DNA of 64,000 nt, taken from Candidatus Gastranaerophilales bacterium (lineage in GTDB: Bacteria > Cyanobacteriota > Vampirovibrionia > Gastranaerophilales > Gastranaerophilaceae). Every line of letters begins with the position of its first letter. Position 1 is the first letter of the stretch. Where the stretch lies: the NCBI GenBank assembly GCA_947631645.1, contig CANRMD010000006.1:1080-65079 (forward strand). The letters are read 5' to 3'. Shown here piece after piece: positions 1 to 49,846 of the stretch. Position numbers and translations under genes: made by a program. The notes beneath the pieces were generated by a model. It saw nothing but the letters and a program-made list of their open reading frames with translations. It had not been told where the DNA came from and searched no databases.

Positions 1-1401
1 TGCTTTATTCATGCTTGTGTCGGGCTTATCGGATTAGGGGCTGCTACATTAATATCGGGTAAATTTAATAAAGATTATGGTATAAAAGCTCAAAATATTT
101 TTGCCAACGGTGATACCATCAAAAATATGTCAACGTTATGGCAAAATTCACAGGGGCAATCAAAACAATATTTTGACGGTTTTGTACAAAGTTTAAAAGG
201 ATTAAACGGAGCTCAATGGCAGAGTGTTTCTGCACAAAGTAAAGATGAAATTGTTGACTCTCTTGTAAATCTTTCTAATAAAATGAAAGAATTATCTTCT
301 GCAGGTAAAGGTTCTAAGAAACAATTAACGCAAGAAGTTAAAGAATTAAAAAATGTAATTATCTCTAAAATTGTGAAAGATACCGGAGCAAAAGCTTCAT
401 TTAAATTAAATATAGGGCAAGAAGGAGTAAAAGAAGTTTCTTCAAGTTTATCGGAACTTGTTGATAATGCTGTATCGCTTTCAAATTCTTTTAAAGGCAA
501 ACCGCTTGATAAAATTCAAAATTTTGCCGGAGCACTTACAAAAAATAAAGTTGCATCTACTTTATTAGGTTTAGGTATATGTGCTGCTTTATGTATGTCA
601 GTCCAACCGATAAACAGATGGCTGACAAAAAAACGTACGGGGCAAGACGGTTTTGTCGGGGTTGAAAATAAGAAAAGCGACAATTCTGATAAATTTAAAA
701 CTTTGAAAAAAGTTTTAGGAATTGCGTTCCCTATTGCAGCAATCAGTTCAATCGGGAAGCCTGTTGATTTAATATCTAATGTTCAATTCAACAGTAAAAT
801 ACCTACAATAAATCAGTTTAAATTTTTATACGGGCTTACAATCGGTTCAAGATTTATGTCGGCAAGAGACAGCAATGAACTAAGAGAAGCCGTAATAAAA
901 GATACTTTAGGGTTTACAAACTGGCTAATATTAGGCGGAATGGTTTCAAAGCTTACCGCACGAGCTATCGGAGGAAAAGAACTGATTAATAATCCCGTTA
1001 CTCAGGACGGAGCTAAAAAGGGTGTTAAATATGCTCTAAATTGGCTGACAAAATCTTCAGTTAAGTCTTTTGATGAAGTACTTTTGCCTAACGCTAAAGA
1101 ACTTATGAAAGACGGTAAAGTGATGAAGTTCTCCGAAATGTTCAAAAATGCCGCACCTGATGTTAAGAAAAAAATATTTAAATTAGCCGGTGCTCAAATT
1201 GCGGGATATTTATATTCCGGTATCGTTTTAGGTATGGGCATTGCAAAACTTAATATATTTATTACAAAACAGGTTCAGGCGAAAAGAGATCTTAAAGAAA
1301 AAATGAAACCTAAAGATGCTCAAAGCTCTTTATCAAAGATTGATTTTGAATATTTTAATAAATTAGATAAACCAAATCCCGTGTTTAAAGATTTTAATTA
1401 A
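1..1401 (+). CDS. Hypothetical membrane protein, 5' end truncated by the window edge
   Basis: Frame 1 is open from base 1 (CFIHACVGLIGLGAATLISGK...) straight into the ORF-track ATG at 127, so the real start probably lies upstream of the window. Hydrophobic segments are present (LLGLGICAALCMSV, IAGYLYSGIVLGMGIA). No family recognised. Confidence 0.5.
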   Translation, partial: CFIHACVGLIGLGAATLISGKFNKDYGIKAQNIFANGDTIKNMSTLWQNSQGQSKQYFDGFVQSLKGLNGAQWQSVSAQSKDEIVDSLVNLSNKMKELSSAGKGSKKQLTQEVKELKNVIISKIVKDTGAKASFKLNIGQEGVKEVSSSLSELVDNAVSLSNSFKGKPLDKIQNFAGALTKNKVASTLLGLGICAALCMSVQPINRWLTKKRTGQDGFVGVENKKSDNSDKFKTLKKVLGIAFPIAAISSIGKPVDLISNVQFNSKIPTINQFKFLYGLTIGSRFMSARDSNELREAVIKDTLGFTNWLILGGMVSKLTARAIGGKELINNPVTQDGAKKGVKYALNWLTKSSVKSFDEVLLPNAKELMKDGKVMKFSEMFKNAAPDVKKKIFKLAGAQIAGYLYSGIVLGMGIAKLNIFITKQVQAKRDLKEKMKPKDAQSSLSKIDFEYFNKLDKPNPVFKDFN

Positions 1402-1418
1402 TTTGTTATAATTCCAAA

Positions 1419-2609
1419 ATGGATATTATTTTAAAAGAAGAATATGAAAAATTTGTTCCGGCGGATTATAAATCTGTTATATCTTGTTGTTCCGATATTG
1501 CTTTGGCAAATGGAATCAATATCTATTTAATTGGCGGAGTTGTAAGAGATTTAATCTTAAATAATATTTTTAAAGATGTTGATATTACAGTTGAATATGA
1601 TGCAATTGAATTTGCAAAATTATTGGAAGCTAAAATAGATTGTAAGATAATTTCAACGCAAGAAAATCTTAGGACTGCAAAAGTTGAATTTGCAAATGGG
1701 GTACAGATAGATTTTGCTTCTACCAGAGAAGAAAAATATTCTTCCGGCGGGGTTTTGCCCGTTGCATATAATTTTGGCTGTGAACTTGAGAAAGATGTTA
1801 AAAGACGGGATTTTACAATTAATACTTTGGCTCTTGGGCTTTTAAATAAAGATAAATATAAGCTTATTGATTATTTTAACGGATACAGTGATTTAAATAA
1901 TAAAAAAATTAAAATTTTACACGCAAAAAGTTTTATTGATGACCCCTCAAGAATAATCAGAGCGTTAAAATTTATGGTAAGATTTGGGTTTGAACTTGAT
2001 ACTTATACAAAAAAATTGATGGAAGAGTATTTATCCGATAATAGTGATTTAATTCCTTTAGAACGAATTAAAAATGAATTATTTCAATATTTTTCTATTC
2101 CAAAGGAAAATTTATATAAGAATATTATTGACTACAAGGTTTATAAATTATTTGGCGATAATCCCATAACTGAATTTGACGAAAAAAAATTAAAAAAATT
2201 TCAAGATTTAAAATTCATTTATTTTACTTTTTTAGTTTTAAATTCAAATTATGAAGATGAGAGATATAATCTTACTTCAAAAGAGAAAAAAATTTTGAAT
2301 GAAATAAAACAACTTTTAACAGAAAATATCAAAAAAGACGATTTTGAAATTTATAAAAAATATAATGAAAAACAAGATTTATCATTAAATATTTATTACT
2401 TAATTACAAATGATACAACAGTTTTAAGGTATCAAAAAATTTTAAAGAATATAAAAGTAGAAATAACGGGAAATGACTTAATTAATTTAGGGTATAAACC
2501 GTCTAAAATTTTTATTCAAATTTTTGATGATATTTTAAGAGAGAAGCTTAAAGGTAAAATAAAAACAAAGGAAGAAGAAATTGAATTTATAAAAAAAATG
2601 AGCAGATAA
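1419..2609 (+). CDS. tRNA nucleotidyltransferase / poly(A) polymerase family protein (CCA-adding-like)
   Basis: Head-domain motifs GGVVRDLIL..DVDITV and RRDFTINTLA are typical of the PolyA_pol/CCA-adding family. Confidence 0.75.
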   Translation: MDIILKEEYEKFVPADYKSVISCCSDIALANGINIYLIGGVVRDLILNNIFKDVDITVEYDAIEFAKLLEAKIDCKIISTQENLRTAKVEFANGVQIDFASTREEKYSSGGVLPVAYNFGCELEKDVKRRDFTINTLALGLLNKDKYKLIDYFNGYSDLNNKKIKILHAKSFIDDPSRIIRALKFMVRFGFELDTYTKKLMEEYLSDNSDLIPLERIKNELFQYFSIPKENLYKNIIDYKVYKLFGDNPITEFDEKKLKKFQDLKFIYFTFLVLNSNYEDERYNLTSKEKKILNEIKQLLTENIKKDDFEIYKKYNEKQDLSLNIYYLITNDTTVLRYQKILKNIKVEITGNDLINLGYKPSKIFIQIFDDILREKLKGKIKTKEEEIEFIKKMSR

Positions 2610-2633: not shown

Positions 2634-3905
2634 TTATGCATTTGCACTGATACACAAAGCTTGTTCTTTAAGAAGTTGAGCTTTGTCTGTATGTTCCCAC
2701 GGAACATCAAAATCAGTTCTTCCCAAGTGTCCGTATGCTGCAAGTCTTTGATAGAATTTACCGCCGTTTTTCTTGGGTAAATTTCTTAAATCGAATTGAT
2801 TAATAATAGCGATAGGTCTTAAATCAAAGTTATCTTGAACAAGTTTCATAATATGGTCGTCAGAAATTTTTCCTGTACCGAAAGTGTCAACGAAGATAGA
2901 AACAGGTTGAGCAACACCGATAGCGTAACCGAGTTCAATTTCGCATTTATCAGCTAAACCTGCTGCAACGATGTTTTTAGCAACGTATCTTGCTGCGTAT
3001 GCTGCACTACGGTCAACCTTAGTCGGGTCTTTGCCTGAGAATGCACCACCGCCATGTCTTGAGTAACCGCCGTAAGTATCAACGATTATTTTTCTGCCAG
3101 TTAACCCTGCATCACCTTGCGGTCCGCCTATTACAAATCTTCCTGACGGATTGATTAAATATTTTGTTGTGCTGTCCGGTTTTAATTGTTCTCTTTCAAA
3201 TACATAATCTATAACATATTTAATCATGTCATTTTTAATTGTTTCTTGAATAATCTTATTATCGGATGTACCGTTAATTACGTCATCATGTTGGGTTGAA
3301 ATAACAATAGTATCAATTCTTACGGGTTTATCATTTTCATATTCAACGGTAACTTGAGATTTGCCGTCAGGACGAAGGTAGTTTAAAATTCCTTGTTTTC
3401 TGACTTGAGCAAGTCTGTAAGAAAGTTTGTGAGCCAAGCTTATAGGCAGAGGCATTAATTCGGGTGTTTCATTGCAAGCAAACCCAAACATAATTCCCTG
3501 ATCGCCAGCACCGATATTATTTGTTTCATCGCTTGATACTGAAGCATTATTATCTCTGGCTTCAAAAGCTTTATTTACACCGCCTGCAATATCGGTTGAT
3601 TGTTCATCTATACTTGTTATAACGGCACATGTTTTGCTGTCAAAACCGCCTGATGATTTACCTGTATATCCGATATTTTCTATTGTTGTTCTTACTATGT
3701 GCGGTATATCTACATAGCAAGAAGATGTTATTTCACCCGTTACAAGAACCATACCTGTAGTAACAGATGTTTCTGCAGCTACTCTTGATTTTGAATCTTG
3801 GGTTAGAAATTCATCTAAAATGGCATCTGATATCTGGTCGCAAACTTTGTCGGGATGACCTTCCGTTACAGATTCAGATGTAAATAAGTATTTTTTTGAA
3901 CTCAT
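2634..3905 (-). CDS. metK: S-adenosylmethionine synthetase
   Basis: N-terminal [21 protein letters not shown], plus [12 protein letters not shown] and [19 protein letters not shown] signatures over the full length. Confidence 0.97.
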
Positions 3906-3990
3906 ATTCGGCTCTCTTTCATGACCTTTTATGTACTACTTTTGTTAATTTTACTTTTAAAAAAATTTCAAGTCAAATAAAATAGCAATA

Positions 3991-4016
3991 AAAAACCGCA
4001 TTATTGCGGTTTTTTA
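3991..4016 (-). terminator. Intrinsic terminator downstream of rpsO
   Basis: AAAAACCGCA-ttat-TGCGGTTTTT hairpin. On the minus strand it is followed by TTTTTTATTG, 26 nt after the rpsO stop. Confidence 0.7.
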
Positions 4017-4041
4017 ACTTTTTTATAATCAATTAATTTAC

Positions 4042-4317
4042 TTATTTTGTTTCTCTTATTTTTAAAGTTTTAATTAATTTTCTGTAATCGTCAAGATTTC
4101 TGTCTTTTAAGTATGAAAGAAGTCTTTTTCTTCTTCCTACCATCATTAAAAGACCGCGTCTGCCTTGGAAATCTTTAGGATTAGATTTTAAGTGTTCGGT
4201 TAATTCAGAAATTTTTTCTGTCAATAAAGCGATTTGGGTTTCAACGCTTCCTGTATCTTGTGCATTTTTACCGTATTTTTCAACGATTTTTGCTTTGTTT
4301 TTTAAGTTTATTGCCAT
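4042..4317 (-). CDS. rpsO: 30S ribosomal protein S15
   Basis: [70 protein letters not shown] is a full-length S15. The ATG at 4317 is preceded by GGAAAAG. The 52-aa N-terminal extension in the ORF track (to 4473) is not S15-like. Confidence 0.95.
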
Positions 4318-4425
4318 TCTCTTTTCCTTTTTTATATTTTGTGACTTGGTGGTGGGTAAGTCTTGAGTATTATCATAATAAGAAGAAAATAATATTTCAA
4401 GCCCGTAAGTAATTTTTCTTAAAAA

Positions 4426-4454
4426 TTGACAACAATTTTTGAATTTAATAATAT
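4426..4454 (+). promoter_or_regulatory. Consensus-like sigma-70 promoter (TTGACA-17-TAATAT) immediately upstream of the B12 radical SAM gene
   Basis: TTGACA at 4426-4431, a 17-nt spacer, and TAATAT at 4449-4454. The ATG at 4461 lies 6 nt after the -10 box, and no SD lies in between. Confidence 0.45.
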
Positions 4455-4460
4455 TTGAAT

Positions 4461-5903
4461 ATGAAAAAAGCAATGCTTATATATCCGCCTACCGGCAAGT
4501 TTTTTCAACGGGGAGAGGACAGGTGTCAAATAGATGTCGGTTCTTCAAGCGTTAATTCACTTAGAGCCTGCAATGATTTGGGTTATGTTTCAGCTATTTT
4601 AAAAAAAGACGGATTTGACATATTTTTAAAAGATTATCAAGCTTTAAAACTTTCTTTAAATAATCTTTTGAATGATATAAGAACTAAAAATCCTGATATT
4701 GTTTTTATAAGTACGACAAATGGAAGTATTTTTGATGATTTAAAAGTAATTTCCGAAATTAAGAAAATAAAAAATGATATAACGACTATTTTAAAAGGTG
4801 CAATATTCTTTAATCCTAATGAAAAACTTTTTGAACATATTGACTTATCTCAAGTTGATTATTTAATAGGCGGTGAGGTCGAATTTATAATCAGTGAATT
4901 ATTAAAAGCTCATTATACCGATAAGAATTTATTAAAAAATATTGAAGGGATATCTTATAAAGAAAATAATAAATGGGTAACAAATAACTTATATCATTTT
5001 CAAGAAGATATTGATTCACTTCCGTTTCCTGACAGAAGTTTAATGCAAAATGAGCTGTACATTAATCCTATGACAAATAAACCTATGGCTCTAATTACAA
5101 CTTCAAAAGGATGTTGTTTTAGCTGCAGATATTGTTTATCTCCTGTTTTATCCGGAAAAAAAGTCAGAACCCGTTCTTCAAACAGCATATTTAATGAAAT
5201 AAAAGACTGTGTAGAAAATCATAATATTACAAATTTCTTTTTAAAATCTGATACATTTACGGTTAATAAACAAAATGTCCTAGAATTATGTACTCTGCTA
5301 ATAAATTCAAAAATAAATGAGAAAATAGAATGGGTAGCTACAACGAGAGTTGATACAACAGATGAAGAAATGTTGAAAATAATGAAACAAGCGGGGTTGA
5401 AATTGCTTGCTATAGGTTTTGAATCCGGTTCACAAGAATCTTTAGATAAGATGCAAAAAAATACCACCATTGAAAAAAATCTTGAAACTGCTAAACTTTG
5501 TAAAAAATTTAATATTAATATTTTAGGTTATTTTTTAATAGGTTTTCCTTGGGAAGATAAATCACATCTTGAAGCTACAAAAAAACATATTCTTGAAATT
5601 GATGCGGATTATATTGAAATATCAGTTGTTGTGCCTTATATCGGAACTCCTATTTATGAAGATTTTATATGCAATAAAGAACAAATGCCTGATATACTCG
5701 GGTTTGATGCTTATAATCATATTTACGAAAAATATGCAAAAATATCTCCAAAATATATGCAAAAGTATAGAAAACATATACTTTTAAAGTATTATACACG
5801 TCCAAAATATATTATAAGTAAATTAAGAGAAATAAAATCTTTACCCGTACTGAAAAATTATATCCAATACGGGTTAAGACTTTTAAAAAATACACTTTCT
5901 TAG
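4461..5903 (+). CDS. B12-binding-domain radical SAM protein (class B)
   Basis: The N-terminal Rossmann-like B12-binding region (LIYPPTG...[19 protein letters not shown]) is followed by the CFSCRYC (CX3CX2C) radical SAM motif. ATG 4461 is preferred over the in-frame TTG at 4455. Confidence 0.8.
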
Positions 5904-7132
5904 TTGTTAAATACTTTGAAAAATTCTTTTAGAAATTCATAACCTTTAAGGTATGTTTTATAATTAATCTGTTCATCGCTTGAGTGCATGTTAAATACGT
6001 CAGCCATGCCGATAAGAACGGGTTTTAAAGTCTTGCCGTATTTATTTTTATTGTTTGCGTAAATATGAGTTTCTGCTCCTGCGTGGAATGATGAAATATC
6101 CAGAGGAAGATTTAAATTTTCGCCTGCTTTTTTTGCGGTATTTACAAGTGTTTCATCGTCGCTTTTTTCAAAAGGAGGCAAATGTTCCGAAGTTTCAACC
6201 TCTGCAAGTGCCAATCCTTTGTATTTCTCATTAAATTTATTAACAATATTTTTTATTTCATTTATTAAATTATTTTCATATTCTCTGCTTGAGCTTCTTA
6301 TTGAATATGCTGCCCCGGCTTTTGTATTAATAATATTAGTTACTGCTTTATCTAAAACTGTTTCAAGATATTTATTGCTTGTTGTAGTTGAATTTTTAAT
6401 GTTATCTATTGCGGTTTCAATACCTCCTCCGATTATTACGCCAAGATTAATTGAAGTAATAACACCTAACTCATCTTTTTTATAAACTCCCTGAGGAATT
6501 TCACTGACAAGTTCAGCTACAAGTTTAGCTGCGTTCAATCTTGTTTTATCATCAATATCAATACCCGAGTGACCGCCTTTTAAACCTTTTACATTAATAA
6601 CAAGTTTAGTATAGCTTGCACCTGCTATTTGTACCTGACCTAATTTGTCTGCATCAAGAACAAGAATGTGTTCGGCTTCTATTTCATTCATTTTAACGTT
6701 ATGAATACCCGTCATATTTTGTTCTTCATCACGGGTAAAAATTATTTCAAGTCCGCCATGTTTTAAGTCTTTATTTTGAGCTAATTCTATAGCAAGTAAA
6801 ATGGCAGCCGCAACACCGGCTTTATCGTCGGCACCTAAAGTTCTTGTTTTATCAGTTTCAATAATATCTCCGTTTAATTTTATATTAACGGAGCTGTCAT
6901 CGCCTACTACATCCATATGTGAACTTAATAACAAAGGTTTTTTAGAAGGGTCTGTCGCTTTAACTTTTGCTCTAATATTTCCGTAGTCATCTCTTTTTGC
7001 TTCTATATTATTTTCTTTAAAAATTGAAAGTATTTTTTCAATAACTTTATCTTCTTTTAAAGAGGGGGACGGAATTAAAGCTAAAGTACAAAATAAATCA
7101 ATAAGTTTATATTCTTTTCGTAATGTTTCCAT
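5900..7132 (-). CDS. M20 family metallopeptidase (PepT/PepD-like)
   Basis: SSHMDVV, LGADDKAGVAAAILLA and TRDEE metal-ligand motifs. AAGGAG RBS upstream of the ATG. Confidence 0.8.
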   Translation of the reverse strand: METLRKEYKLIDLFCTLALIPSPSLKEDKVIEKILSIFKENNIEAKRDDYGNIRAKVKATDPSKKPLLLSSHMDVVGDDSSVNIKLNGDIIETDKTRTLGADDKAGVAAAILLAIELAQNKDLKHGGLEIIFTRDEEQNMTGIHNVKMNEIEAEHILVLDADKLGQVQIAGASYTKLVINVKGLKGGHSGIDIDDKTRLNAAKLVAELVSEIPQGVYKKDELGVITSINLGVIIGGGIETAIDNIKNSTTTSNKYLETVLDKAVTNIINTKAGAAYSIRSSSREYENNLINEIKNIVNKFNEKYKGLALAEVETSEHLPPFEKSDDETLVNTAKKAGENLNLPLDISSFHAGAETHIYANNKNKYGKTLKPVLIGMADVFNMHSSDEQINYKTYLKGYEFLKEFFKVFNN

Positions 7133-7216
7133 TTTTTACTCCTTTTTAGAATAATTATAGATTATTTTTTATTAATAGTATATAATATATATGTTAAAAA
7201 GGTGTAAGGAAGTTAT

Positions 7217-7405
7217 ATGGCTAAAGTTTTATTATCAATACCCGATAAGTTTTTGACCCAAATAGATGAAGTGGCGGAAAACGAGCAGAGAACCAGAAGC
7301 GAATTAATTCGTGAAGCTTTACGAAATTACATCAAAAGAAATAGCATATTTGACATGAAAAAAACTGCATCTGACGCTGAGTTTTTAGAAAAATTGTTGG
7401 ATTAG
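7217..7405 (+). CDS. Ribbon-helix-helix (CopG/Arc/MetJ-type) DNA-binding protein
   Basis: A beta-strand (VLLSIPDKF) followed by helices (RTRSELIREALRNYI) is typical of RHH. AAGGAAG RBS. Confidence 0.65.
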   Translation: MAKVLLSIPDKFLTQIDEVAENEQRTRSELIREALRNYIKRNSIFDMKKTASDAEFLEKLLD

Positions 7406-8841: not shown

Positions 8842-9816
8842 TCATTGATTTAATAAAGGTTTTATAAGTTCTCCTACGGCATAATATTCAATATGAAGAT
8901 CAAGCTTTTTGGCTTCTTGTTCAAAATATTGATAAAATTCTATTATCGGATGATTTTTATCAATTTTATTTTTATTATATGTATACCAGTGTGATTCAAT
9001 ATCCATAATAACAGAATTAACATTTGATTCTTTGCTTAAAATAAGCCAATTTTTAATTTGTTCTTTAAATGCATTTGTATATACGCCGAATTCATACGGA
9101 AGAAGTATATATTTTGTTGCAACTCCGTATTTATTATTTTTTTGAGCTTTTGCGTATTTTTTTATATTTTTCCAAACCTCGTTAAATTTATCAACTCTTT
9201 TAATAATTCTGTATGTATTTGTATTAGAACTGTCAGGTGAGATTGTTAATCTTGTATTTTCTTGAGATATGTATTTTTCAATGCTCTTGGAGAATTTGAT
9301 TCCTGAAGAATTAATTTGCACACTTGCAATATTATTTTTATAAAAAAAATCCATAATTTTATCAAATTCTTTTAACAGTGTAGGTTCTCCGCCGCCAAAA
9401 CTTAATCTTCCGTCAAACCTTAAAATATTTTTTTCTTTCATATCTTTAAGAATGGGCATAAAATTATAAGGTTTTATTTTGGGTTTTTTATCTAAATCAC
9501 AATATATACAATTTGAATTGCAATGAGTCCAGTGAGATATTATTATAAAATTAATATAAGGTTCCCAATCATCCCAATCTTTTTCTTGATAATACTGACA
9601 GGTTTTACAAAAAATACTCGGGTTTCCTTCTTTCATATTTTGAAGTTGAGTTTTTCTTTCCCGCATTAGTAAATCCCAGTCTAAAGCTTCCCCGTTATAA
9701 GGCTCTTTAATTTTATAAAACTCTAAAAATCTTATGCCGGAATGACAACAATAATCTATTTGATTTGTCCAAAACATTATCGCATGTCTTAAAAATTCAC
9801 AACTTTTGTATTTCAT
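8842..9816 (-). CDS. Radical SAM protein with N-terminal Cys-rich domain (paralog A)
   Basis: CNSNCIYC (CX3CX2C), GGGEPTLL, and N-terminal C6-x16-C23C24H plus CKTC. Clear paralog of 13871-14872. Confidence 0.75.
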   Translation of the reverse strand: MKYKSCEFLRHAIMFWTNQIDYCCHSGIRFLEFYKIKEPYNGEALDWDLLMRERKTQLQNMKEGNPSIFCKTCQYYQEKDWDDWEPYINFIIISHWTHCNSNCIYCDLDKKPKIKPYNFMPILKDMKEKNILRFDGRLSFGGGEPTLLKEFDKIMDFFYKNNIASVQINSSGIKFSKSIEKYISQENTRLTISPDSSNTNTYRIIKRVDKFNEVWKNIKKYAKAQKNNKYGVATKYILLPYEFGVYTNAFKEQIKNWLILSKESNVNSVIMDIESHWYTYNKNKIDKNHPIIEFYQYFEQEAKKLDLHIEYYAVGELIKPLLNQ

Positions 9817-10068
9817 TTTATTCTTAGTTAAAAATTTAACCTTTTATTATAATACTTATTTTATTTTATATTATTTTATTGAAAAAATTAAGTAGAATTA
9901 AATATATAATGTAAAAATTATTTAGTGTAAAAAATGAATTTGTAAAAGTTTATTTATATTTTAAGATTTTACTTAAAATTTGTGATAAATTTGATATGTA
10001 GATAAGAGATTAGATAATAATAATCCCTAAAACAGTTTAATGATTTAGAGTCAAGGAGATTTATAGGT

Positions 10069-10681: not shown

Positions 10682-11809
10682 ATGGCAAAAGAACGATTAA
10701 AAGTGGCATTTCCGCATATGGGAAATGTATATATATCATGGGCTGCTGCGTTAAAGAAATTGGGTTTAGAACCAATTATTCCGCCAAGAACCAGTAAACG
10801 TACATTAGAATTGGCTTCAAAATACAGCCCTGATTCAATTTGTCTGCCTTATAAATTAATACTTGGGAATTTTCTGCAAGCAATTGAAAACGGTGCTGAT
10901 TATGTTGCTATGATTACTTCCCCCGGAATTTGCAGACTCGGAGAATACGGACAGAGCATAAAAAATGTACTGAAAGATATCGGTTATGGTGATAAGTATA
11001 CAGAACTTCAGCTCTATGACGGCTTTAAAGGCATGTATAAGTTCTTAACAGATTTGTCAGGTGAAAAAAATCCTATTCCTTTAATAAAGGCAATAAATAT
11101 GGCGGTTAGAAGCGTTTTTGTTGTTGATAAACTTGAAACACTTTTTTCATATTACAGAGCCAGAGAAATAACTGTAGGAACGGCAGAAAAACATTTTAAT
11201 AAAGCTCTTAATATGGTAATGACGGCAGAAAATACAAGAGAACTTAAAAAAATAGCTAAGGAAGCTTTTGAAGAAATTAAAAAAACGGAAATTGACCCGA
11301 ATAGAGAAATTGTTAACGTAGATATAACGGGCGAAATATTCCTTGTTCAAGACCCGTTTTCCAATCAAAACATAGAAAAAGAACTCGGAAGAATGGGAGT
11401 TCAAACAAGGAGGAGTTTGACTGTTTCAGGTTTTTTAAAAGATGCAATTATTCCAAAGTGGTTTAAAAAAGGTGAAACTCACTTAGAACGTGCTTTTAGA
11501 ATGGCAAAGCCCTACTTGATGCGTGATATCGGCGGTGATGCGTTAGAATCTGTCAGTGATGTAGCATACGCAAATGAACGTGGAGTTGACGGCATTATCC
11601 ATATAAGTCCTTTTACCTGTATGCCTGAGATTATGTCTCAAAATATTTTTCCAACAATGAGAGAAAATTGTGATATTCCTATTTTAACTCTTATTATGGA
11701 TGAACAAACAGGCAGAGCCGGTTATATTACACGTCTTGAAGCTTTTGTTGATTTAATGAAACGAAAAAAGTATATAAAAGCAAAACAAAAAAAATTGCAA
11801 AACGTTTAA
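10682..11809 (+). CDS. Acyl-CoA dehydratase activase-related protein (DUF2229-like), stand-alone
   Basis: N-terminal FPHMGNVYISW...LGLEPIIPPRTSKRTLELASKYSPDSICLPYKLILGNFLQAIENGADYV resembles the DUF2229 pattern (C.P.K...G). Confidence 0.5.
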   Translation: MAKERLKVAFPHMGNVYISWAAALKKLGLEPIIPPRTSKRTLELASKYSPDSICLPYKLILGNFLQAIENGADYVAMITSPGICRLGEYGQSIKNVLKDIGYGDKYTELQLYDGFKGMYKFLTDLSGEKNPIPLIKAINMAVRSVFVVDKLETLFSYYRAREITVGTAEKHFNKALNMVMTAENTRELKKIAKEAFEEIKKTEIDPNREIVNVDITGEIFLVQDPFSNQNIEKELGRMGVQTRRSLTVSGFLKDAIIPKWFKKGETHLERAFRMAKPYLMRDIGGDALESVSDVAYANERGVDGIIHISPFTCMPEIMSQNIFPTMRENCDIPILTLIMDEQTGRAGYITRLEAFVDLMKRKKYIKAKQKKLQNV

Positions 11810-11831
11810 TTATTAAGATTTGTAAAGTACT

Positions 11832-11862
11832 AAAACCCTAATAGAACAAGGGTTTTAATTAG
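11832..11862 (+). terminator. Intrinsic terminator after the DUF2229-like gene
   Basis: AAAACCCT-aatagaaca-AGGGTTTT, then AATTAGTTTTT, 23 nt after the stop. Confidence 0.55.
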
Positions 11863-21698: not shown

Positions 21699-22442
21699 AT
21701 GTATAGATGTACTGAATGCAATCAAGAATTTGAAGAATGTCCGGATTATTGTGATTGCGGAAATGATACTTTTGAAGAAGTATCAGCGGATGCTGAAGAT
21801 TCTTATTATGAATCTGAATATGAAAGACCGCTTCCTCCGCCTCCTAAAAAAAGATTGACAAAACAGGAAAAGGAAGAACTCGCACAAGAAGAAAAAGAAA
21901 AAAAGATGTCTTTGGTCGTTCTTGGCGTAGTGGCAATTTTATTATGCGTGATAATATTTGTTTTACCGCCGCATAAGAAGCCAAAAATGGAAAAGGTTAA
22001 AATTAAGGTTTCGCAAAAACAAAATAAAGACGTTCTTGATGTTGATTCTTATTGGGATAATACAGTTCCATCAGTACATAAAAAAGAGGATCCGTTAGCG
22101 AACTTACCGTTATTAAATTCAAATTTCAGTTCAATTTCTCCTACTTTAAGAGAATATCTTGTATACATAGGTAATGAATTTAAAAGAAAATGGGATACTA
22201 CAATTATAAAAGGTGACGGAGAATGCAAGGTTGAATTTACTGTTAATAAAGAAGGAAATTTGGCAACGAAGAGAATTGTATCTACATCACATAATGACAG
22301 TTTAGACAATTCCGTTTTGCTTGTATTATCTAAGTTAAACAGTTTTAATGTTCCGCCGGATGAATACAAAGGCGAAAGAGTATATATAACATTTAAAGTT
22401 AATCCTGATAAATCATCAATGGTTATTTATCCGATGAAATAA
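21699..22442 (+). CDS. Zinc-ribbon / single-TM / TonB-C-like domain protein
   Basis: CTECNQ...CPDYCDCG zinc ribbon, E/K/P-rich linker, TM (LVVLGVVAILLCVIIFVL), and a C-terminal domain resembling TonB_C (ECKVEFTVNKEGNLATKRIVSTSHNDSLDNSVLLVLSKL). Confidence 0.5.
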   Translation: MYRCTECNQEFEECPDYCDCGNDTFEEVSADAEDSYYESEYERPLPPPPKKRLTKQEKEELAQEEKEKKMSLVVLGVVAILLCVIIFVLPPHKKPKMEKVKIKVSQKQNKDVLDVDSYWDNTVPSVHKKEDPLANLPLLNSNFSSISPTLREYLVYIGNEFKRKWDTTIIKGDGECKVEFTVNKEGNLATKRIVSTSHNDSLDNSVLLVLSKLNSFNVPPDEYKGERVYITFKVNPDKSSMVIYPMK

Positions 22443-23693
22443 GTTTAAAAACTCGGGAAAAGAAATATTAACCCATTGAAATTCATTAATTTTAATGGGT
22501 TTTTTACATATTAATCCCGCAACAAAAGTACTCATTGCAATTCTGTGATCATGGTAGCAGTTAACATCACAATCACCGGTAAGTTGAGTTTTGCCGTTTA
22601 TAATAAGTCCGTCATTTGTTTCTTGAATATCAGCACCTAATTTTGATAATTCAACTTTAACTGCATTAATTCTGTCTGCTTCTTTATTTCTTAAATCTTG
22701 AGCATCTTTTATTATTGTAGTTCCTTGTGCTTGTGTTGCAGCTACTGCAATTATAGGAATTTCATCAATCAATCTTGGTATTATAGCTCCTTGTATAGTT
22801 GCAGCCTTTAAAGAAGAATATCTGACTTTTATATCAGCTACTTTTTCATTGGAGATAATTCTTTCGTTAGTAAGCTCAATATCAGCATTCATTGATTTGA
22901 GAATATCAATAATGCCCGAACGTGTTTCGTTAATTCCGACATTTTTTATTGTAATATCAGAATCGGGAACAATTAAAGCAGCGACTATAAAAAATGCAGC
23001 GGAAGATATATCACCGCATATATTTATATCAACAGGATTAAGCTTTGATTTTTTTACCGAAACTTTATTTCCTTTTATTGATATATCAGCCCCCATATAT
23101 TCAAACATAAGTTCAGTATGATTTCTTGATTTATAAGGTTCCGAAAAAGAGGTAATTCCGTTTGCATTTAAGCCCGCAAGCAGAATGCAAGATTTTACTT
23201 GTGCTGAAGCAAGTTCGGATTTATAATCAATCCCATTTAATTCAGTTCCGTATATTTCTATAGGAAGTTTAAAATCATTATGATTAAATTTCCCTCCCAT
23301 AAGTTCAAGCGGGGTTATAATTCTTTTCATCGGTCTTTTAGAAAGACTTTCATCTCCAAATAATGAAGAGTTAAAGGGTTGACCGGCTAATATACCTGAT
23401 ATTAGTCTTGTTGTAGTTCCCGAATTGCCGCAATTTAAAGAAGTAATAGGAGCTTTTAGTGCATCTTTTGCATTTATTATCAATTCATTTTCATTTAGAT
23501 ATTCAATATGACAGCCTAATTGTTCTATTATTTTTAATGTTGTTAAACAATCAGCACCTTTTGAGTAATTAGAAATTTTAGCTTTCCCTTTAGTAAGAGA
23601 GGAGAACATAAAAGCTCTATGGGTAATAGATTTATCCGGAGGAATTGTTATTTCACCTTGTAAAGAATTTGTTTTATTTACGGTAATATCCAT
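22416..23693 (-). CDS. aroA: 3-phosphoshikimate 1-carboxyvinyltransferase (EPSP synthase)
   Basis: LNCGNSGTTTRLISGILAG, DHRIAMS and full-length collinearity. The 3' end overlaps the convergent upstream gene by 27 nt. Confidence 0.95.
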   Translation of the reverse strand: MDITVNKTNSLQGEITIPPDKSITHRAFMFSSLTKGKAKISNYSKGADCLTTLKIIEQLGCHIEYLNENELIINAKDALKAPITSLNCGNSGTTTRLISGILAGQPFNSSLFGDESLSKRPMKRIITPLELMGGKFNHNDFKLPIEIYGTELNGIDYKSELASAQVKSCILLAGLNANGITSFSEPYKSRNHTELMFEYMGADISIKGNKVSVKKSKLNPVDINICGDISSAAFFIVAALIVPDSDITIKNVGINETRSGIIDILKSMNADIELTNERIISNEKVADIKVRYSSLKAATIQGAIIPRLIDEIPIIAVAATQAQGTTIIKDAQDLRNKEADRINAVKVELSKLGADIQETNDGLIINGKTQLTGDCDVNCYHDHRIAMSTFVAGLICKKPIKINEFQWVNISFPEFLNLFHRINNH

Positions 23694-23783
23694 ATTTTTT
23701 ATTAGACAATAAATTTAAATTATTTGCAAATCGATTACATAAAAAATATTATTTTTATATTTAATTAAATAAAAAACAAAAAA

Positions 23784-23932
23784 GATGAAATCATCAACCG
23801 GATACTACGTTTCTAATTTTCAGGCTGCGACTCAAGCTGCGGAACTCCTCCCTGCGGTCGTCAAACAGTCCTCGCTTTGATGTTGTCTTGCTTGAAAATT
23901 TACGAAACTTCGTATATGGTTTCAGATTTCAT
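23784..23932. repeat. E1: ~150-nt imperfect palindromic element with GC-rich core
   Basis: Arms GATGAAATCATCAACCGGATACTACGTTTCTAATTTTCAGG and CTTGAAAATTTACGAAACTTCGTATATGGTTTCAGATTTCAT pair imperfectly. The element is flanked by an A-run and a T-run. The core carries AACTC...TCAAACAG, the complement of the E2/E4 loop strings. Confidence 0.6.
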
Positions 23933-23976
23933 TTTTTTTATTTATTTAAAAAAGAGCTAATAATATAAAAATTAAA

Positions 23977-24115
23977 GTCCCTTGCGTAGTATAGTACAAC
24001 TTCTTTGCGAAGAAACAGCAAAGACCCGTCTGTTTGAGCTGACTTTGTCAGCGAGTTACGGGGCTTATGCTGAGCTTAGAAGTTATCTATACGCAGCATC
24101 AGGACGCAATTTTTA
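23977..24115. ncRNA. E2: candidate structured RNA / REP-like element sharing a covarying core with E4
   Basis: Nested helices run from outer GTCC..GGAC and TGCGTAGTATAG../..CTATACGCA to inner cccgt|CTGTTTGA|gctgac-ttt-gtcagc|GAGTT|acggg (24025-24062). T-runs lie on both sides. Strand unresolved. Confidence 0.4.
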
Positions 24116-24170
24116 TATTATTTGCACATTCTTAAATATAATTAAACCTATTAATAATATTTTTTATGTA

Positions 24171-25424
24171 TTATAAATCATTCGGTGATATTATTCTTCC
24201 TGCGATTGCACTTGCTGCCGCAACATAAGGTGAAGCCAAATAAACTTCACTTTCTGTATGTCCCATTCTTCCGACAAAATTTCTGTTTGTTGTTGATATG
24301 GCTCTTTCACCTTTGGCAAGTATCCCTGCATGTCCGCCCAGGCAAGGTCCGCATGTTGGTGTAGATACGGCTCCGCCCGCTTCTATAATTGTTTCTATGT
24401 AACCTTCTTTTAAAGCATTAAGATAAATTTGCTGAGTTGCGGGGAATACTATTAACCTTACATCTTTGTGAACTTTTTTCCCTTTTAAAATTTCTGCTGC
24501 CGCTTTTATGTCCGATAAACGTCCGTTAGTACAGCTTCCTATAACAGCCTGATCAATTTTTATATCTCCCGCTTGAGAAACAGGTTTTGTGTTTTCAGGC
24601 AGATGAGGAAATGCAACAACAGGTTCAATTTCTTCCGTGTTATAAATTATAACTTTTTCATATTGTGCATCTTTGTCGCTGGTATGGAACTTAGGCAGGC
24701 GAATACTTCTGTTATTAAGATATTCTTTTGTAATATCATCTGGCTCAATAATACCATTTTTTGCACCTGCTTCTATTGCCATATTACAGATGGTAAATCT
24801 TCCGTCCATTGGCAGATTTCGGATTGTTGAACCTCCTATTTCCAAAGTTTTATATAAAGCTCCATCTACTCCGATATCACCGATTAAGTATAAAATAAGA
24901 TCTTTTGCCGTTACGTATTTATTTAATTTCCCGTTAAATTCAACTTTAATTGCAGAGGGAACTTTAAGCCAAGTTTCACCTGAAGCCATTGCACAGGCAA
25001 TATCGGTTGAGCCCATGCCTGTAGAAAAAGCACCTAATGCCCCGTAAGTACAAGTATGAGAGTCTGCACCTATAACCAAATCACCCGCCGTAACTATACC
25101 GTTATCGGGTAAAAGAGCGTGTTCTATACCCATTCTGCCGACTTCAAAGAAGTGTGTGAGATTTTGCTCTCTTGCAAATTCACGAACTTGCTTAACTTGT
25201 TCGGCTGATTTTATATCGCGGTTTGGGACAAAATGATCGGGTACAAAAACGACTCTGTCTTTATCAAAAACTTTATCTACCCCGATTTTATTAAATTCAT
25301 TAATAGCTACAGGTCCCGTAATATCGTTTGCAAGTGTAATATCAACTTTTGCAGTAATTAATTGCCCCGGATAAACTTCTTTTAATCCGGCGTGTTCAGC
25401 TAAAATTTTTTCGGTTATATTCAT
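24171..25424 (-). CDS. leuC: 3-isopropylmalate dehydratase / homoaconitase large subunit (aconitase family, short archaeal-type)
   Basis: Aconitase-family Fe-S ligand context ([27 protein letters not shown]). 417 aa. Confidence 0.9.
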
Positions 25425-46880: not shown

Positions 46881-47525
46881 CTAATATTTAAAAGCAAAAT
46901 ATTGTAGCATTGGGTAATTGGTATGCCACAATTCTTCATTAGGTACATTTTCGGGAAGTTCAAGAGTAACGGTCGGAATATTTCTTTCAACGCCCGCAAA
47001 ATTGCCAAAACTTCCGGGGGTGGGGTAACCTATATCCGCTTGAACGGGATAGGCTGTTATTTTGGAAATTGTTTGAGCTAATTCTTTTGCGGGGCCGTCA
47101 TAGTTAACGATTTCAAAAGGTGCGTGAATTGAAATTATTGCATCAGGTTTATATTGTTCAAGCACTTCTATTATAAATTTTGTTTCGATTTCACTTGCAG
47201 GTTCTAATCCTCCAAAATATTCATTTTTATCGGTTAATTGCCAATTTTTTGTTGGGAAATTCCTGTTTAAATCAACTCTGTTTGAGTTTTGACGCTGATT
47301 TTTTGCCATACCATCAGGGTTTAAGCAAGGAAGTATCAATAATTTATTTTTAATTCCCGTTAAATCTGTTTTCATAAATTTATTAAGCAGATAATATCCT
47401 TGAGGTTCTTCACCATGAAAGACGCCTATCAGTAATATTTTTTTATCATATTCTTTATTTTGAGTTTCAAATAAAGTAATGGAATTTTTTTCTTTAGTTT
47501 TAGCAGATTTAACGGCTTTGAACAT
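46881..47525 (-). CDS. M14 zinc carboxypeptidase, murein peptide amidase (MpaA)-like
   Basis: HGEEPQG (HxxE), NPDG, NRVDLNRNFP and SIHAP motifs. Confidence 0.8.
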   Translation of the reverse strand: MFKAVKSAKTKEKNSITLFETQNKEYDKKILLIGVFHGEEPQGYYLLNKFMKTDLTGIKNKLLILPCLNPDGMAKNQRQNSNRVDLNRNFPTKNWQLTDKNEYFGGLEPASEIETKFIIEVLEQYKPDAIISIHAPFEIVNYDGPAKELAQTISKITAYPVQADIGYPTPGSFGNFAGVERNIPTVTLELPENVPNEELWHTNYPMLQYFAFKY

Positions 47526-47938
47526 TATTCCCCCATAACTTTAATTAAAACTCGTTTACGTCTTTGCCCGTCAAACTCAGCATAATAAACTTGCTGCCAA
47601 GGTCCGAAATCAAGTCTGCCGTTTGTTACCGGGATTATAACTTCATGCCCGATTAAAAGGCTTTTTAAGTGGCTGTCTGCGTTAGTTTCTCCGGTATGAT
47701 GATGATTATAATTAATATCAAACGGGGCAAGTTCTTCAACCCATTTATCTATATCTGATATTAAGCCTGACTCGGCATCATTTATGTAGACGCCTGCAGT
47801 TATATGCATGGCACTTACAAGAATCATACCTTCTTTTATACCGCTTTCGTGTAGTGCTTGTTCTACTTCGTCGGTTATGTTTATATATTCGCGGTGTTTT
47901 TGTGTATTAAACCAAAGATATTTAGTATAAAATTTCAT
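47525..47938 (-). CDS. YjbQ/UPF0047 family protein (secondary thiamine-phosphate synthase-like)
   Basis: [16 protein letters not shown]...NADSHLKS...GPWQ.VYY.EFDG.R.R pattern over the full 137 aa. Confidence 0.8.
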
Positions 47939-47960
47939 TTTTCCTCTTTTTATTTTTTAT

Positions 47961-48000
47961 CTCATTTTATATCATTTTATATCATTTTATATCATTTATT
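47961..48000. repeat. Four tandem 10-bp units (ATCATTTTAT-like) between the yjbQ start and E4
   Basis: CTCATTTTAT ATCATTTTAT ATCATTTTAT ATCATTTATT, read directly. Confidence 0.85.
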
Positions 48001-48340
48001 GAAATATTATAAGGTTTGAATGACTTGAAATAATAATGTAATTTTCTTAACGAGGTGAATATCAGAGCAATTCTCTGTTTGAGCCCGATAGGGCGAGTTA
48101 GAATTGCTTTGGTGCCGAGTTAAAGAAAATAATTATTATTGAACGGAATGAAAACCTTATAATATTTCATTATTTGTTTTTCCTTTTTATAATGTATTAA
48201 ATAATAATGTAATATTTATAACGAGGTGAACATCAAAGCAATTCTCTGTTTGAGCCCGATAGGGCGAGTTAGAATTGCTTTGGTGCCGAGTTAAAGAAAA
48301 TAATTATTATTGAACGGAATGAAAACTTTATAATATTTCA
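48001..48340. ncRNA. E4: two tandem copies (171-bp period) of a structured element sharing the E2 core
   Basis: Copy A (48001-48168) is closed by a perfect 17-bp stem GAAATATTATAAGGTTT/AAACCTTATAATATTTC. Its inner helices are AATAATAATGTAATTTTCTTAAC/GTTAAAGAAAATAATTATTATT, CAGAGCAATTCT/AGAATTGCTTTG, and the core CTGTTTGA|gccc-gata-gggc|GAGTT. Copy B (48199-48339) lacks the left outer arm. Strand unresolved. Confidence 0.45.
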
Positions 48341-48357
48341 ATATGTATTATCATTTT

Positions 48358-49836
48358 TTATTTTGTAATATATTTAATTAAGCTTCTTACTCCGATACCT
48401 GTAGCACCTTTTATTCCCTCTGAGTTTGCAGAGTCTAAAAATGCGGTTCCCGCAATATCCAAGTGAAGCCAAGGTGTATTTTTTATAAATTTAGAAAGGA
48501 AAATACCTGCAGCAGAAGCTCCGCCCATTCTGCCGCCTGTATTCTTGGTATCTGCTATATCACTTTTCAGCGTGTCGCCGTATTCTTCAAACATTGGTAA
48601 TTGCCAATATCTTTCACCTGTAATATCTGCCGTTTTTATAAATTCTTTAATTTTATCTTCATTGTTACCCATAATACCTGAAGCTACGGTACCTAAAGCA
48701 ACCATACAAGCACCTGTTAAAGTAGCTATATCAATAATTTCATCAACATTAAGTTCTTCCGCGTAAGCTAAAGCATCAGCAAGAGTAACTCTGCCCTCTG
48801 CGTCGGTATTATCTATTTCAATACTTCTGCCGGTTTTTGCTATAATTACATCCCCCGGTTTATATGCACTGCCTGAGGGCATATTTTCGCAAGCTGCAAC
48901 AAGTGCATGGACTTCCACATCAGGTTTTAATTCGGAGATTGCTCTCATAGTACAAATAACAGCAGCAGCACCCGACATATCATCACGCATTGTAAGCATA
49001 GATGACGGCGGTTTAAGGTCTAATCCGCCCGCATCAAAAGTTATACCTTTCCCGACTATAGCAATTTTTCGTTTTGCTTTCTTTTCGGGTTTATATTCCA
49101 TGTGAATAAACTTAGGTTCGTGTACACTGCCTTGCCCTACTGCTAAAAAGGCATTCATACCCATTTTTTTGATTTGAGCTTTATTATAAACGGTTGTTTT
49201 TACGCCCGAGTTTTCAACTGCATATTTTGCAAGTGTTTCAGGGTATAAATATTGCGAAGATTCATTTATTAAATCTCTGGCCCTGTTTACTGCTTCTGCG
49301 ATAACGGTGCCTGTTTCAACCCCTTGTTTCGCTTTTTTATATTTTGTGTTATCTGTTTCAGCTATAATAAATTCTTTTATATTATTGTCTTTTTTTTCTG
49401 TTTTATATTTGTCAAACGCGTATGTTCCTGAAATTGCACCTTCTGTAATCATTTGAGCACACAATTCAGGGCACATTCCGCCTATACCTGCACCATGTAA
49501 TATAGTTACAACTTTTTTTACACCTTTTAATAAACTGCAAGTTCTTATTATTTTTGCGGTTAAATCTCTTATTTTAGAATATGTAAAATCTTTTTGTTCA
49601 CCCAGCCCGGCAATAAATATTCTTTTACCTTCTTTTGGGAGAGGAAGCTGATAGATAGAGCCGTATTTACCTTCAAATTTTTCCTGTTTAATAACAAAAT
49701 CGGAAATAATGTTTTTATATGCTTTATCTACAATTCCCGTAACGCCTCCCGGGGCTTTTACCCCTTTAAACAGATTAACTATAATCAAATCTGCATCAAT
49801 ATCTAAGATAGATTTTTTTTCGATTTTAACTTTCAT
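48358..49836 (-). CDS. pepA: Leucyl aminopeptidase (M17)
   Basis: GKGITFDAGG and NTDAEGRVTLAD motifs. ATG 49836 has AAGGAG 6 nt upstream and is preferred over the ORF-track ATG at 49854. Confidence 0.93.
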   Translation of the reverse strand: MKVKIEKKSILDIDADLIIVNLFKGVKAPGGVTGIVDKAYKNIISDFVIKQEKFEGKYGSIYQLPLPKEGKRIFIAGLGEQKDFTYSKIRDLTAKIIRTCSLLKGVKKVVTILHGAGIGGMCPELCAQMITEGAISGTYAFDKYKTEKKDNNIKEFIIAETDNTKYKKAKQGVETGTVIAEAVNRARDLINESSQYLYPETLAKYAVENSGVKTTVYNKAQIKKMGMNAFLAVGQGSVHEPKFIHMEYKPEKKAKRKIAIVGKGITFDAGGLDLKPPSSMLTMRDDMSGAAAVICTMRAISELKPDVEVHALVAACENMPSGSAYKPGDVIIAKTGRSIEIDNTDAEGRVTLADALAYAEELNVDEIIDIATLTGACMVALGTVASGIMGNNEDKIKEFIKTADITGERYWQLPMFEEYGDTLKSDIADTKNTGGRMGGASAAGIFLSKFIKNTPWLHLDIAGTAFLDSANSEGIKGATGIGVRSLIKYITK

Positions 49837-49846
49837 ATTAGTCTCC

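Follow-up and report, generated by a model that had tools for sequence, protein, structure and literature searches.

Long hairpin elements with an invariant asymmetric loop form a new family, possibly of small RNA genes, in Candidatus Gastranaerophilales

Repetitive extragenic palindromic (REP) sequences are imperfect palindromes of 20-40 nucleotides (nt) with a conserved GTAG-type head, present in hundreds of copies per genome together with a RAYT (Y1 transposase) gene that is itself flanked by copies, and roles at gene 3' ends or as terminators have been proposed for the REP and ERIC elements of enterobacteria. 6S RNA carries a large central bubble that mimics an open promoter and is encoded in one or two copies per genome. 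Here we analyze a 64,000-nt stretch from a Candidatus Gastranaerophilales bacterium (contig CANRMD010000006.1, positions 1,080 to 65,079; hereafter the window, with ~31% G+C), a member of the Melainabacteria, the uncultivated relatives of the Cyanobacteria found in animal guts. Four hairpin elements in this window, designated E1, E2, E4A and E4B, belong to a real, previously undescribed and well-supported new family of structured elements. The explanation that we favor, to which we give about even credence, is that they form a family of autonomous, rod-shaped small non-coding RNA genes in which an invariant loop is a recognition site.

A preliminary description of this DNA had noted in E2 and in both E4 copies a short core in which the two strands of an asymmetric loop are kept while the helices on either side change, and the strings quoted for the three copies are all present in the sequence where it placed them. 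In E2, the core consists of cccgt (24025-24029), CTGTTTGA (24030-24037), gctgac-ttt-gtcagc (24038-24052), GAGTT (24053-24057) and acggg (24058-24062), and the cores of E4A (48069-48105) and E4B (48240-48276) are identical to one another. The complete elements are delimited as follows:

23943-24138, plus strand: complete E2 hairpin, including its AT-rich outer stem P0 (model match 23970-24123, 160.9 bits; fold)
24025-24062, plus strand: top module of E2, with helix P3 (cccgt/acggg), the 8-nt CTGTTTGA, the variable hairpin P4 and the 5-nt GAGTT
23760-23950, minus strand: complete E1 hairpin, in the opposite orientation (model match 23778-23927, 114 bits; top loop 23843-23868)
48000-48169, plus strand: E4A, with an 18-bp perfect terminal stem TGAAATATTATAAGGTTT / AAACCTTATAATATTTCA (50.6 bits; top loop 48075-48099)
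48189-48340, plus strand: E4B, tandem duplicate of E4A (53.6 bits; top loop 48246-48270)

The split motif CTGTTTGA-N(6-30)-GAGTT has four matches in the window (24030-24057, 48075-48099 and 48246-48270 on the plus strand, and 23843-23868 on the minus strand), against a mean of 0.06 in dinucleotide shuffles of the window, none of which reached four. The top loop of every window copy lies near the apex of a long hairpin, and the long outer stems reported earlier are real, with minimum free energies of -48.5 kcal/mol for E2, -65.1 kcal/mol for E4A and -43.9 kcal/mol for E1 (z-scores against shuffles of -3.95, -10.6 and -4.0, respectively). E4A and E4B constitute a 171-bp tandem duplication with 91% identity and, as recent duplicates of each other, count as a single independent observation, so that the window holds three independent versions of the element (E1, E2 and E4). 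These three have only the loops and the structure in common and are old, diverged paralogues, in keeping with the earlier view that they are not the product of a simple recent duplication; only E4A and E4B are recent duplicates.

The exact motif, within the same wider architecture, is found in seven relatives. A covariance model (R1) was built from nine aligned copies, with helices written by hand and checked pair by pair (153 positions, 36 pairs), because RNAalifold run on a plain MAFFT alignment missed the inner helices through misplaced gaps. In the window, R1 assigns 161 bits to E2, 114 to E1, 54 to E4B and 51 to E4A, and a search with filters off returned nothing beyond these four. The depiction of E1 as a weaker copy therefore has to be abandoned, since it scores 114 bits against 161 for E2 and its apical hairpin is a proper stem containing a tandem G-A (C-GA-CC-gca-GG-GA-G). 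R1 detected ~20 copies in Candidatus Gastranaerophilales relatives, and a 23-base pattern scan of a metagenome collection identified three loci from other organisms, on contigs L178, L179 and L180 (L-numbers denote contigs or loci of relatives or metagenomes). L178 carries two copies (45-47% G+C), L179 one (54% G+C) and L180 one, and the family spans 27-54% G+C. Covariance-model searching yielded ~25 copies in relatives and these three contigs, and none in 886 kb of decoy DNA, consisting of viral contigs pre-selected for chance occurrences of a 17-base linear motif (no match at E <= 1). The generic 17-base motif has at least 120 chance matches in viral contigs, none of them a true copy by R1, the 23-base specific pattern has no match there, and no DNA similar to the E-elements was found in plasmid and phage databases.

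The earlier observation that stems change around a fixed loop is borne out by strong covariation across these ~25 copies. Aligned by fitting to the model, 25 matches have standard pairs in 90.7% of cells, as opposed to 34-40% when partners are slid by one to three columns, both-sided changes are seen in 35 of the 36 modelled pairs and none of 500 shuffles reaches any of the observed measures, although the fit of the alignment to the model makes these covariation figures lean somewhat towards it. Many of the compensating changes are flips, such as UA to AU or GC to CG. Reading the copies directly, we counted ~18 distinct P4 apical hairpins (e.g., gctgac/gtcagc, aggc/gcct, ggagc/gctcc, gcacgc/gcgtgc, gttc/gaac, gccc/gggc and gggtg/caccc) around identical 8+5 loop bases, and ~11 distinct basal P3 helices around the invariant loop, from which few copies deviate (C-to-U, CCGGUUGA, UGUAUGA and AAGUU, one case of each). 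Preservation of a 13-base loop from 27% to 54% G+C while the helices vary is usually the sign of a specific molecular recognition site.

The conserved core is real but was originally drawn too small, since two further features are also kept, including in copies devoid of the top loop. Within the P2 helix, a covarying dinucleotide pair (GAAG/CUGA, GAAA/UUGA, GAGG/CCGA) frames a tandem G-A, and above this helix lies an A-rich mid loop, with ..AACANCA on the 5' strand and 2-5 nt on the 3' strand; a GAA/GAA-type loop lies near the element base. Of the 16 copies that have the top loop, 15 read purine-purine-pyrimidine-purine at positions 2-5 of the mid loop (AACA, AACG, GGCG, AGCG, AGCA, AAUA), and these are exactly the sequences able to pair with the UGUU of the top loop if G-U is allowed. 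This match does not amount to covariation, because the UGUU partner is invariant, and, since the mid loop and UGUU flank the same 9-bp helix on one strand, they cannot pair within the rod as drawn; pairing through an alternative fold or between molecules is conceivable. At the E1 position of L017 (9742-9927) and L019 (9739-9924), the outer stems and mid loop are kept, the apex is replaced by ~60 nt forming two hairpins, and of the top loop only CUG... and ...AGUU are left at the junction, making this a natural variant in its apical domain. Coding potential was rejected: P4 length differs between copies by non-multiples of three, and the sole AUG-started frame of E2 is absent in its orthologues.

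All copies are intergenic, and their orientation relative to the neighboring genes varies. In the window, E1 and E2 lie between the 5-enolpyruvylshikimate-3-phosphate (EPSP) synthase gene aroA (22416-23693, minus strand) and an aconitase-family gene (24171-25424, minus strand), and E4A and E4B between yjbQ (UPF0047; 47525-47938, minus strand) and an M17 aminopeptidase gene (48358-49854, minus strand). All tested neighbor genes are housekeeping genes, and no transposase or recombinase was present among 28 neighboring proteins scanned. Copy number is low, with four copies in the 64-kb window and, in ~1 Mb of relatives and outside the aroA site, approximately one per 100-200 kb. The orthologous aroA loci all come from Candidatus Gastranaerophilales or other Melainabacteria of gut metagenomes. 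Pfam alone cannot separate MurA from AroA for the gene at 22416-23693; close homologues are annotated as 3-phosphoshikimate 1-carboxyvinyltransferase (AroA).

The aroA locus also reveals how the elements are maintained. Among the E2 orthologues of the window, L019, L017 and L005, identity is 87-89%, the hypervariable P4 included, whereas the adjacent aroA genes show 74-77% DNA identity and only 52-56% at third codon positions. The high identity of E2 next to saturated synonymous sites indicates purifying selection in place, and the alternative that these are decaying duplicates or insertions was not borne out. The gene itself is preceded by a conserved block that lies outside the E1/E2 unit:

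23694-23735, minus strand: aroA promoter-like block outside the cassette (TTGCAA at 23724-23729, a 17-nt spacer, TCTAAT at 23701-23706 and 7 nt to the ATG)

This block, composed of ATTTGCAAAT, ~11 nt, TTTATTGTCTAAT, 6-7 nt and the ATG, recurs in most of the 35 listed orthologous loci, with or without the cassette. E1 points towards aroA, but the position of the block between E1 and the aroA ATG implies that E1 is not part of the aroA leader. Judging from the sequence, the aroA mRNA may be leaderless, as TTGCAA/17-nt/TCTAAT would start transcription at or beside the start codon, and the TTTATTGTCTAAT part could be a regulator site. An aroA leader or riboswitch was rejected, given the conserved promoter between E1 and the start codon and the varying orientation of the element. 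In L003, a genuine 6S gene (9765-9937, plus strand; RF00013, 48.2 bits against a cut-off of 46.4) with the extended -10 TGGTATAAT sits directly upstream of the aroA promoter, in the same place as E1/E2 in the window, so this slot is able to host a small RNA gene. No 6S RNA was detected in the window or in four other loci scanned, and the 6S RNAs of this lineage may often fall below the Rfam threshold.

Several features distinguish the two strands of the elements. R1 gives the sense strand 161 bits, compared with 27 for the antisense, and over 23 copies, which are not fully independent, the sense strand folds better by 4.2 kcal/mol on average (Wilcoxon p = 0.002), with an advantage of 5-14 kcal/mol in divergent copies. 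Only the sense strand has tandem G-A mismatches that return at set positions; on the opposite strand they would be U-C/C-U. Most copies show an A tract, the hairpin and a U tract; the two L178 copies, which are richer in G+C, and E4A/E4B have a U-rich tract beyond the closing stem on one strand alone, the sense strand, as seen after E4A on the plus strand. A TATAAT hexamer (48188-48193) lies just 5' of the structured part of E4B. Fold asymmetry, tandem G-A, one-sided U tracts and long-term purifying selection lean towards an RNA on the motif strand. The features pointing to DNA are also real: there is no G-U excess, and terminal inverted repeats, inversions and synteny breaks accompany the elements. 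The earlier alternative of a structured RNA or a REP-type DNA hairpin is supported as a pair of candidates, and REP/RAYT membership specifically finds no support in size, copy number or head motif. Selection on both strands, for the RNA on the sense strand and for the transcript end of the converging gene on the antisense, would reconcile the two sets of features.

If the elements are RNA genes, each would produce an RNA of ~150 nt, or ~190 nt counting the outer AU stem, read from the strand with CUGUUUGA...GAGUU, in Candidatus Gastranaerophilales (Melainabacteria/Vampirovibrionia) and some other uncultivated bacteria. The putative transcript would fold into a single long irregular hairpin running from P0 through P1a-c, P2 with its tandem G-A, the A-rich asymmetric mid loop and a 9-12-bp P3 to the 8+5-nt top loop and P4, and the top loop would probably be closed by U-G, G-A and A-G beside P4, leaving a U-rich bulge. 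The invariant loop would be the functional site, most plausibly a dock for a conserved protein or RNA partner, and the stems would serve only as a scaffold and hence covary freely. Lying between an A tract and a U tract, usually tens of bases from a gene end, the hairpin would probably also act as a bidirectional transcription stop; such two-way termination would impose selection on both strands, which would explain the scarcity of G-U pairs, and the inverted repeats that bound each unit would allow it to be easily flipped by recombination. We favor this explanation because diverged paralogues keep the structure and 13 loop bases, because the elements are under purifying selection and show sense-strand features, and because their copy number is low and their surroundings are housekeeping genes. 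If transcribed, they represent a new multi-copy RNA family for this lineage, probably with a partner protein.

Several observations weigh against this explanation. Approximately 10 of the 13 elements nearest a gene 3' end are antisense to that gene, the rest being mixed, and E2-type copies fold equally well on either strand. The consensus pairs comprise 11 G-U cells against 23 A-C cells (part of the A-C count reflecting a register shift in E1-type P3), with no G-U excess, and wobble pairs make up only ~1.4% of paired cells, an unusual figure if selection acted on the RNA of a single strand. The palindrome of E1/E2-type copies extends into the AT-only flanks, the place required for a promoter, and has symmetrical A and U tracts. 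Promoter and terminator consensus scans performed no better than on shuffles, and the terminator scan calls nothing at the elements. Four or five copies, moreover, have lost the top loop or swapped it for another hairpin while keeping the lower part, which implies that the loop is not the sole selected feature.

Beyond what had been described, a further conserved inverted repeat surrounds either the single element or the E1/E2 pair. The arms of these repeats around E1 and E2 map as follows:

23736-23770, no strand: left arm of the E1/E2 cassette repeat I1 (35 nt, 86% complementary; core ACATAAAAAATATTAT at 23737-23752)
24136-24170, no strand: right arm of the cassette repeat (core at 24154-24169, minus strand; abuts the aconitase-family stop codon)
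23760-23794 and 23916-23950: arms of the E1 outer inverted repeat I2
23943-23973 and 24108-24138: arms of the E2 outer inverted repeat I3

The E1/E2 inverted pair is also present in L005, L017, L019, L024 and L026. Inward-facing copies of the 16-nt core bound the equivalent cassettes in L005, L017 and L019; the L024 cassette has one strict core match and a more diverged partner, L026 carries the same repeat, and L011 has a core pair around a cassette situated at another locus. Across the ~1 Mb searched, 13 of 21 core matches flank E-elements, and the core was not found around the L016, L020 or L178 copies. The core matches at window positions 13924 and 63523 were set aside as likely due to chance, since they fall inside long open reading frames or protein-coding-looking sequence. 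No consistent direct repeat indicative of a target-site duplication was found outside the inverted repeats of seven cassettes.

These units have inverted between relatives. A 384-bp cassette lies in opposite orientations in L024 and L026 (L026 9582-9964 corresponds to L024 9107-8725, with 95.8% identity) between flanks that are 100% and 93.7% identical, and in L005 the units of E2 and E1 have each been turned round at their own sites relative to the window, taking along ~40 nt of upstream spacer apiece, which fits a self-contained gene with its own promoter. Gene order downstream of aroA is kept in most relatives and upstream order is different in every relative, placing the cassette at a synteny break. 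Filled and empty sites are also observed. The M17-yjbQ spacer measures 419 nt in the window, with E4B and E4A, and 88 nt in L190-L195, close relatives (YjbQ 93% identical) in which it holds an ordinary intrinsic terminator (GGGGAGTATTG-TTAC-AATATTCCCC-TTTTTT); the M14-efp spacer measures 365 nt in L196, with a degenerate copy, and 100 nt, empty, in L190. The terminator of L190 9913-10000, also present in L191-L195, reads AAAAAGGGGAGTATTG-TTAC-AATATTCCCC-TTTTTT and shows the standard terminator form of the lineage. Between the yjbQ start and E4A (window 47950-48010) there are four head-to-tail 10-bp units (TATCATTTTA/TATATCATTT) at helical-turn spacing, of which L189 has fewer copies; their number may vary by strain. 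L189 itself is a low-coverage contig that runs from yjbQ (reverse) through E4A back into yjbQ (forward), with arms (1-362 and 362-1168) of only 92% identity. Misassembly is the probable cause, two strains having been joined by a fold-back at the 18-bp terminal repeat; a real inverted duplication is less likely.

The main rival explanation, which we regard as possible but doubtful, lies at the DNA level. The elements would then be palindromic repeats comparable to MITEs (miniature inverted-repeat transposable elements), REPINs or invertons, that is, non-autonomous cassettes bounded by the inverted repeat ACATAAGAAATATTAT, whose extruded or single-stranded hairpin, with its fixed asymmetric loop, is recognized by a recombinase or transposase encoded elsewhere; stem covariation would reflect arm co-evolution or template switching in a palindrome instead of RNA folding. 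The 16-nt core that bounds the aroA cassettes (window, L005, L017, L019, L024) and recurs at another locus in L011, the 13 of 21 core matches flanking E-elements, the inversion of the whole cassette between L024 and L026 and of E1 and E2 individually in L005, and the location of elements at synteny breaks and at filled or empty M17-yjbQ and M14-efp sites all speak for such cassettes. So do the near-exclusive use of Watson-Crick pairs, with G-U not above A-C and many UA/AU and GC/CG flips, and the breaking of assemblies at the hairpin apex. This rival is harder to reconcile with the lack of a consistent target-site duplication, with low copy number, with same-genome copies that are highly diverged instead of near-identical and with purifying selection that has held orthologous copies at the same locus over genus-level divergence. 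The tested neighbors include no transposase or recombinase, no family member was seen in plasmids, phages or viral contigs, and neither the strand asymmetry of folding nor the missing core around the L016, L020 and L178 copies is accounted for. If the elements do act as DNA, they constitute an unusual palindromic cassette that inverts, marking rearrangement points beside essential genes. A composite of both accounts, which we consider improbable, posits a non-autonomous self-inverting cassette around a structured RNA, in which the loop CUGUUUGA/GAGUU, as RNA or single-stranded DNA, is offered to a dedicated factor whose gene lies elsewhere (for instance a recombinase, or a protein that binds RNA or is guided by it) and which flips or moves the cassette, and the orientation of the paired units would select which paralogue is made or which transcript is stopped.

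The tracts that frame the hairpins could also serve the neighboring genes alone, although we deem it unlikely that the elements are intergenic punctuation, co-transcribed with their neighbors as bidirectional terminators or insulators, or as 3'-stabilizing or RNase-processing hairpins, with no RNA of their own. The arrangement of A tract, hairpin and U tract in most copies would suit such a role, as would the location of many copies 17-47 nt past a stop codon and immediately ahead of the next promoter, their replacement of a plain intrinsic terminator in the M17-yjbQ spacer and the flipping of orientation without visible consequence. A terminator, however, has no need of 13 invariant loop bases, a tandem G-A and 150 nt of covarying helices over 27-54% G+C, nor of two elements where one suffices; the consensus terminator scan does not call the elements, and in E4 and L178 the U tract is confined to the motif strand, which runs antisense to the upstream gene. 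It is very improbable, in turn, that a new small self-cleaving ribozyme or an aptamer is built around the invariant loop, even though an invariant loop with freely covarying helices in both orientations is typical of such architectures and the GA before and after the hairpin gives a tandem G-A as in the hammerhead. The ribozyme and riboswitch models of Rfam gave no match even at E <= 10, the loop is two-way with no three-way junction, the hammerhead A6 and A14 are U and G here, and the elements have no fixed place or orientation upstream of any gene class, with E1 lying upstream of the aroA promoter. A new class of self-cleaving ribozyme built on this loop would be as novel as the self-inverting cassette.

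The hairpins have a practical consequence for genome surveys. Contigs from several independent assemblies end inside them, either near the E1 apex (L001 and L002, position 1) or at other points of E1-like, E2 or E4 elements (position 1 of L018, L182 and L186-L188). Since the hairpin apex breaks short-read assemblies, the elements are probably under-counted and under-represented in metagenome-assembled genomes. On L178, the inverted element copies at 1331-1486 (plus strand) and 11685-11832 (minus strand) lie, in an organism of ~45% G+C, on either side of a region that comprises three consecutive paralogous papain-fold glutamine-deamidase toxin-domain genes and an M23 peptidase gene (3497-7305). 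A VanY-type peptidase lies just past the second element copy, and a second conserved hairpin, ACTTTCTTTT-loop-AAAAGAAAGT, comes after each of the two L178 copies.

Comparison with known systems supports the remark of the preliminary description that the motif is not recognizable as any described riboswitch, ribozyme or sRNA. Searching the whole window with Rfam 15 (4227 models) gave no match at gathering score, and at E <= 10 the E1/E2, E4, L179 and L178 sequences gave only unrelated chance matches. Literature searches returned nothing on non-coding or structured RNA, repeats or hairpins in Melainabacteria or Gastranaerophilales, and only unrelated miRNA and siRNA papers for the string CUGUUUGA. 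Like 6S RNA, the E-elements are rods of 150-190 nt that are mostly double-stranded, are interrupted by internal loops and have U residues after the closing stem; unlike it, they have no loop larger than 8+5 nt and hence no bubble resembling an open promoter, are multi-copy and lack the 6S consensus strings. 6S RNA (RF00013) was rejected accordingly, with no match at E <= 10 in positions 23690-24175, the 6S gene of L003 serving as positive control.

Individual parts of the structure recall other motifs. The hammerhead core consists of CUGANGA and GAAA at a three-way junction, and the E-element loop (CUG-UUU-GA / GAG) resembles it in having CUG...GA, a hairpin and then GA..., with a tandem G-A extending the hairpin stem; it has one loop base too many, A6 and A14 are replaced, and there is neither a stem I nor a three-way junction nor an Rfam match. 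A kink-turn requires a three-base bulge followed by tandem G-A, with a Watson-Crick stem right after the A on the other strand. In the top loop, the bases due to close the canonical stem are CUG opposite GUU and remain unpaired, and in P2 no bulge lies beside the tandem G-A. Integron attC sites have RYYYAAC...GTTRRRY end boxes and form same-orientation cassette arrays with an integrase nearby; the E-elements end in AAAGTCC...GGACGCAA or in AT-only sequence, their orientations are mixed and their neighbors are housekeeping genes. Hammerhead, kink-turn, attC and T-box were all rejected on their defining features. In an intrinsic terminator, a G+C-rich stem is immediately followed by a U tract; U-rich tracts do follow the outer stems of the elements, which replace a canonical terminator in one spacer, and the consensus scan calls none at the elements.

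Among DNA-level systems, invertons resemble the aroA cassette in size (a 370-450-bp segment), in their 13-25-bp inverted repeats, in lying just upstream of a gene's promoter and in occurring in both orientations between near-identical flanks, here in different relatives (L024 and L026). They differ in that the aroA promoter is conserved outside the segment, which contains two structured hairpins and no recognizable promoter, and no invertase gene was seen among the tested neighbors. The palindromic repeat families (REP/BIME/REPIN, ERIC, Correia/NEMIS, RUP and cyanobacterial MITEs such as Nezha) are likewise intergenic, multi-copy imperfect palindromes foldable as RNA or single-stranded DNA, occur singly or as inverted pairs near gene ends in either orientation, and are associated with terminal inverted repeats and rearrangements; E1/E2 shows the inverted pairing of the BIME/REPIN type. 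In contrast, E-copies share structure and not sequence, their loop is invariant across widely differing G+C, their copy number is low, no target-site duplication was found and no RAYT or transposase was seen among the tested neighbors, and orthologues are kept at one locus. REP/RAYT membership is unsupported because size (150-190 nt), copy number and head motif do not fit, the GTAG of E2 (GCGTAGTATAG) being replaced by GCGCAG in L024, GCGAAG in L027 and ACGAAG in E1. MITEs share with the elements terminal inverted repeats (16-25 bp with the core ACATAAGAAATATTAT, and 18 bp, perfect, in E4A) and filled and empty orthologous sites (M17-yjbQ and M14-efp), but not the missing target-site duplication or the lack of many near-identical copies per genome.

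On the RNA side, the cyanobacterial Yfr2-5 family and the bacterial Y RNAs differ from the E-elements in sequence and model (Rfam being negative), in that the E-elements form a single long rod with conserved bases in internal loops, and in that E-units are bounded by inverted repeats and invert. Yet both groups, like the putative RNA family described here, consist of several diverged paralogues per genome that present conserved loops on variable stems as independent intergenic genes, sometimes in tandem, and within-genome paralogues that share only structure and loops follow the pattern of an RNA gene family and not that of a recently spread repeat.

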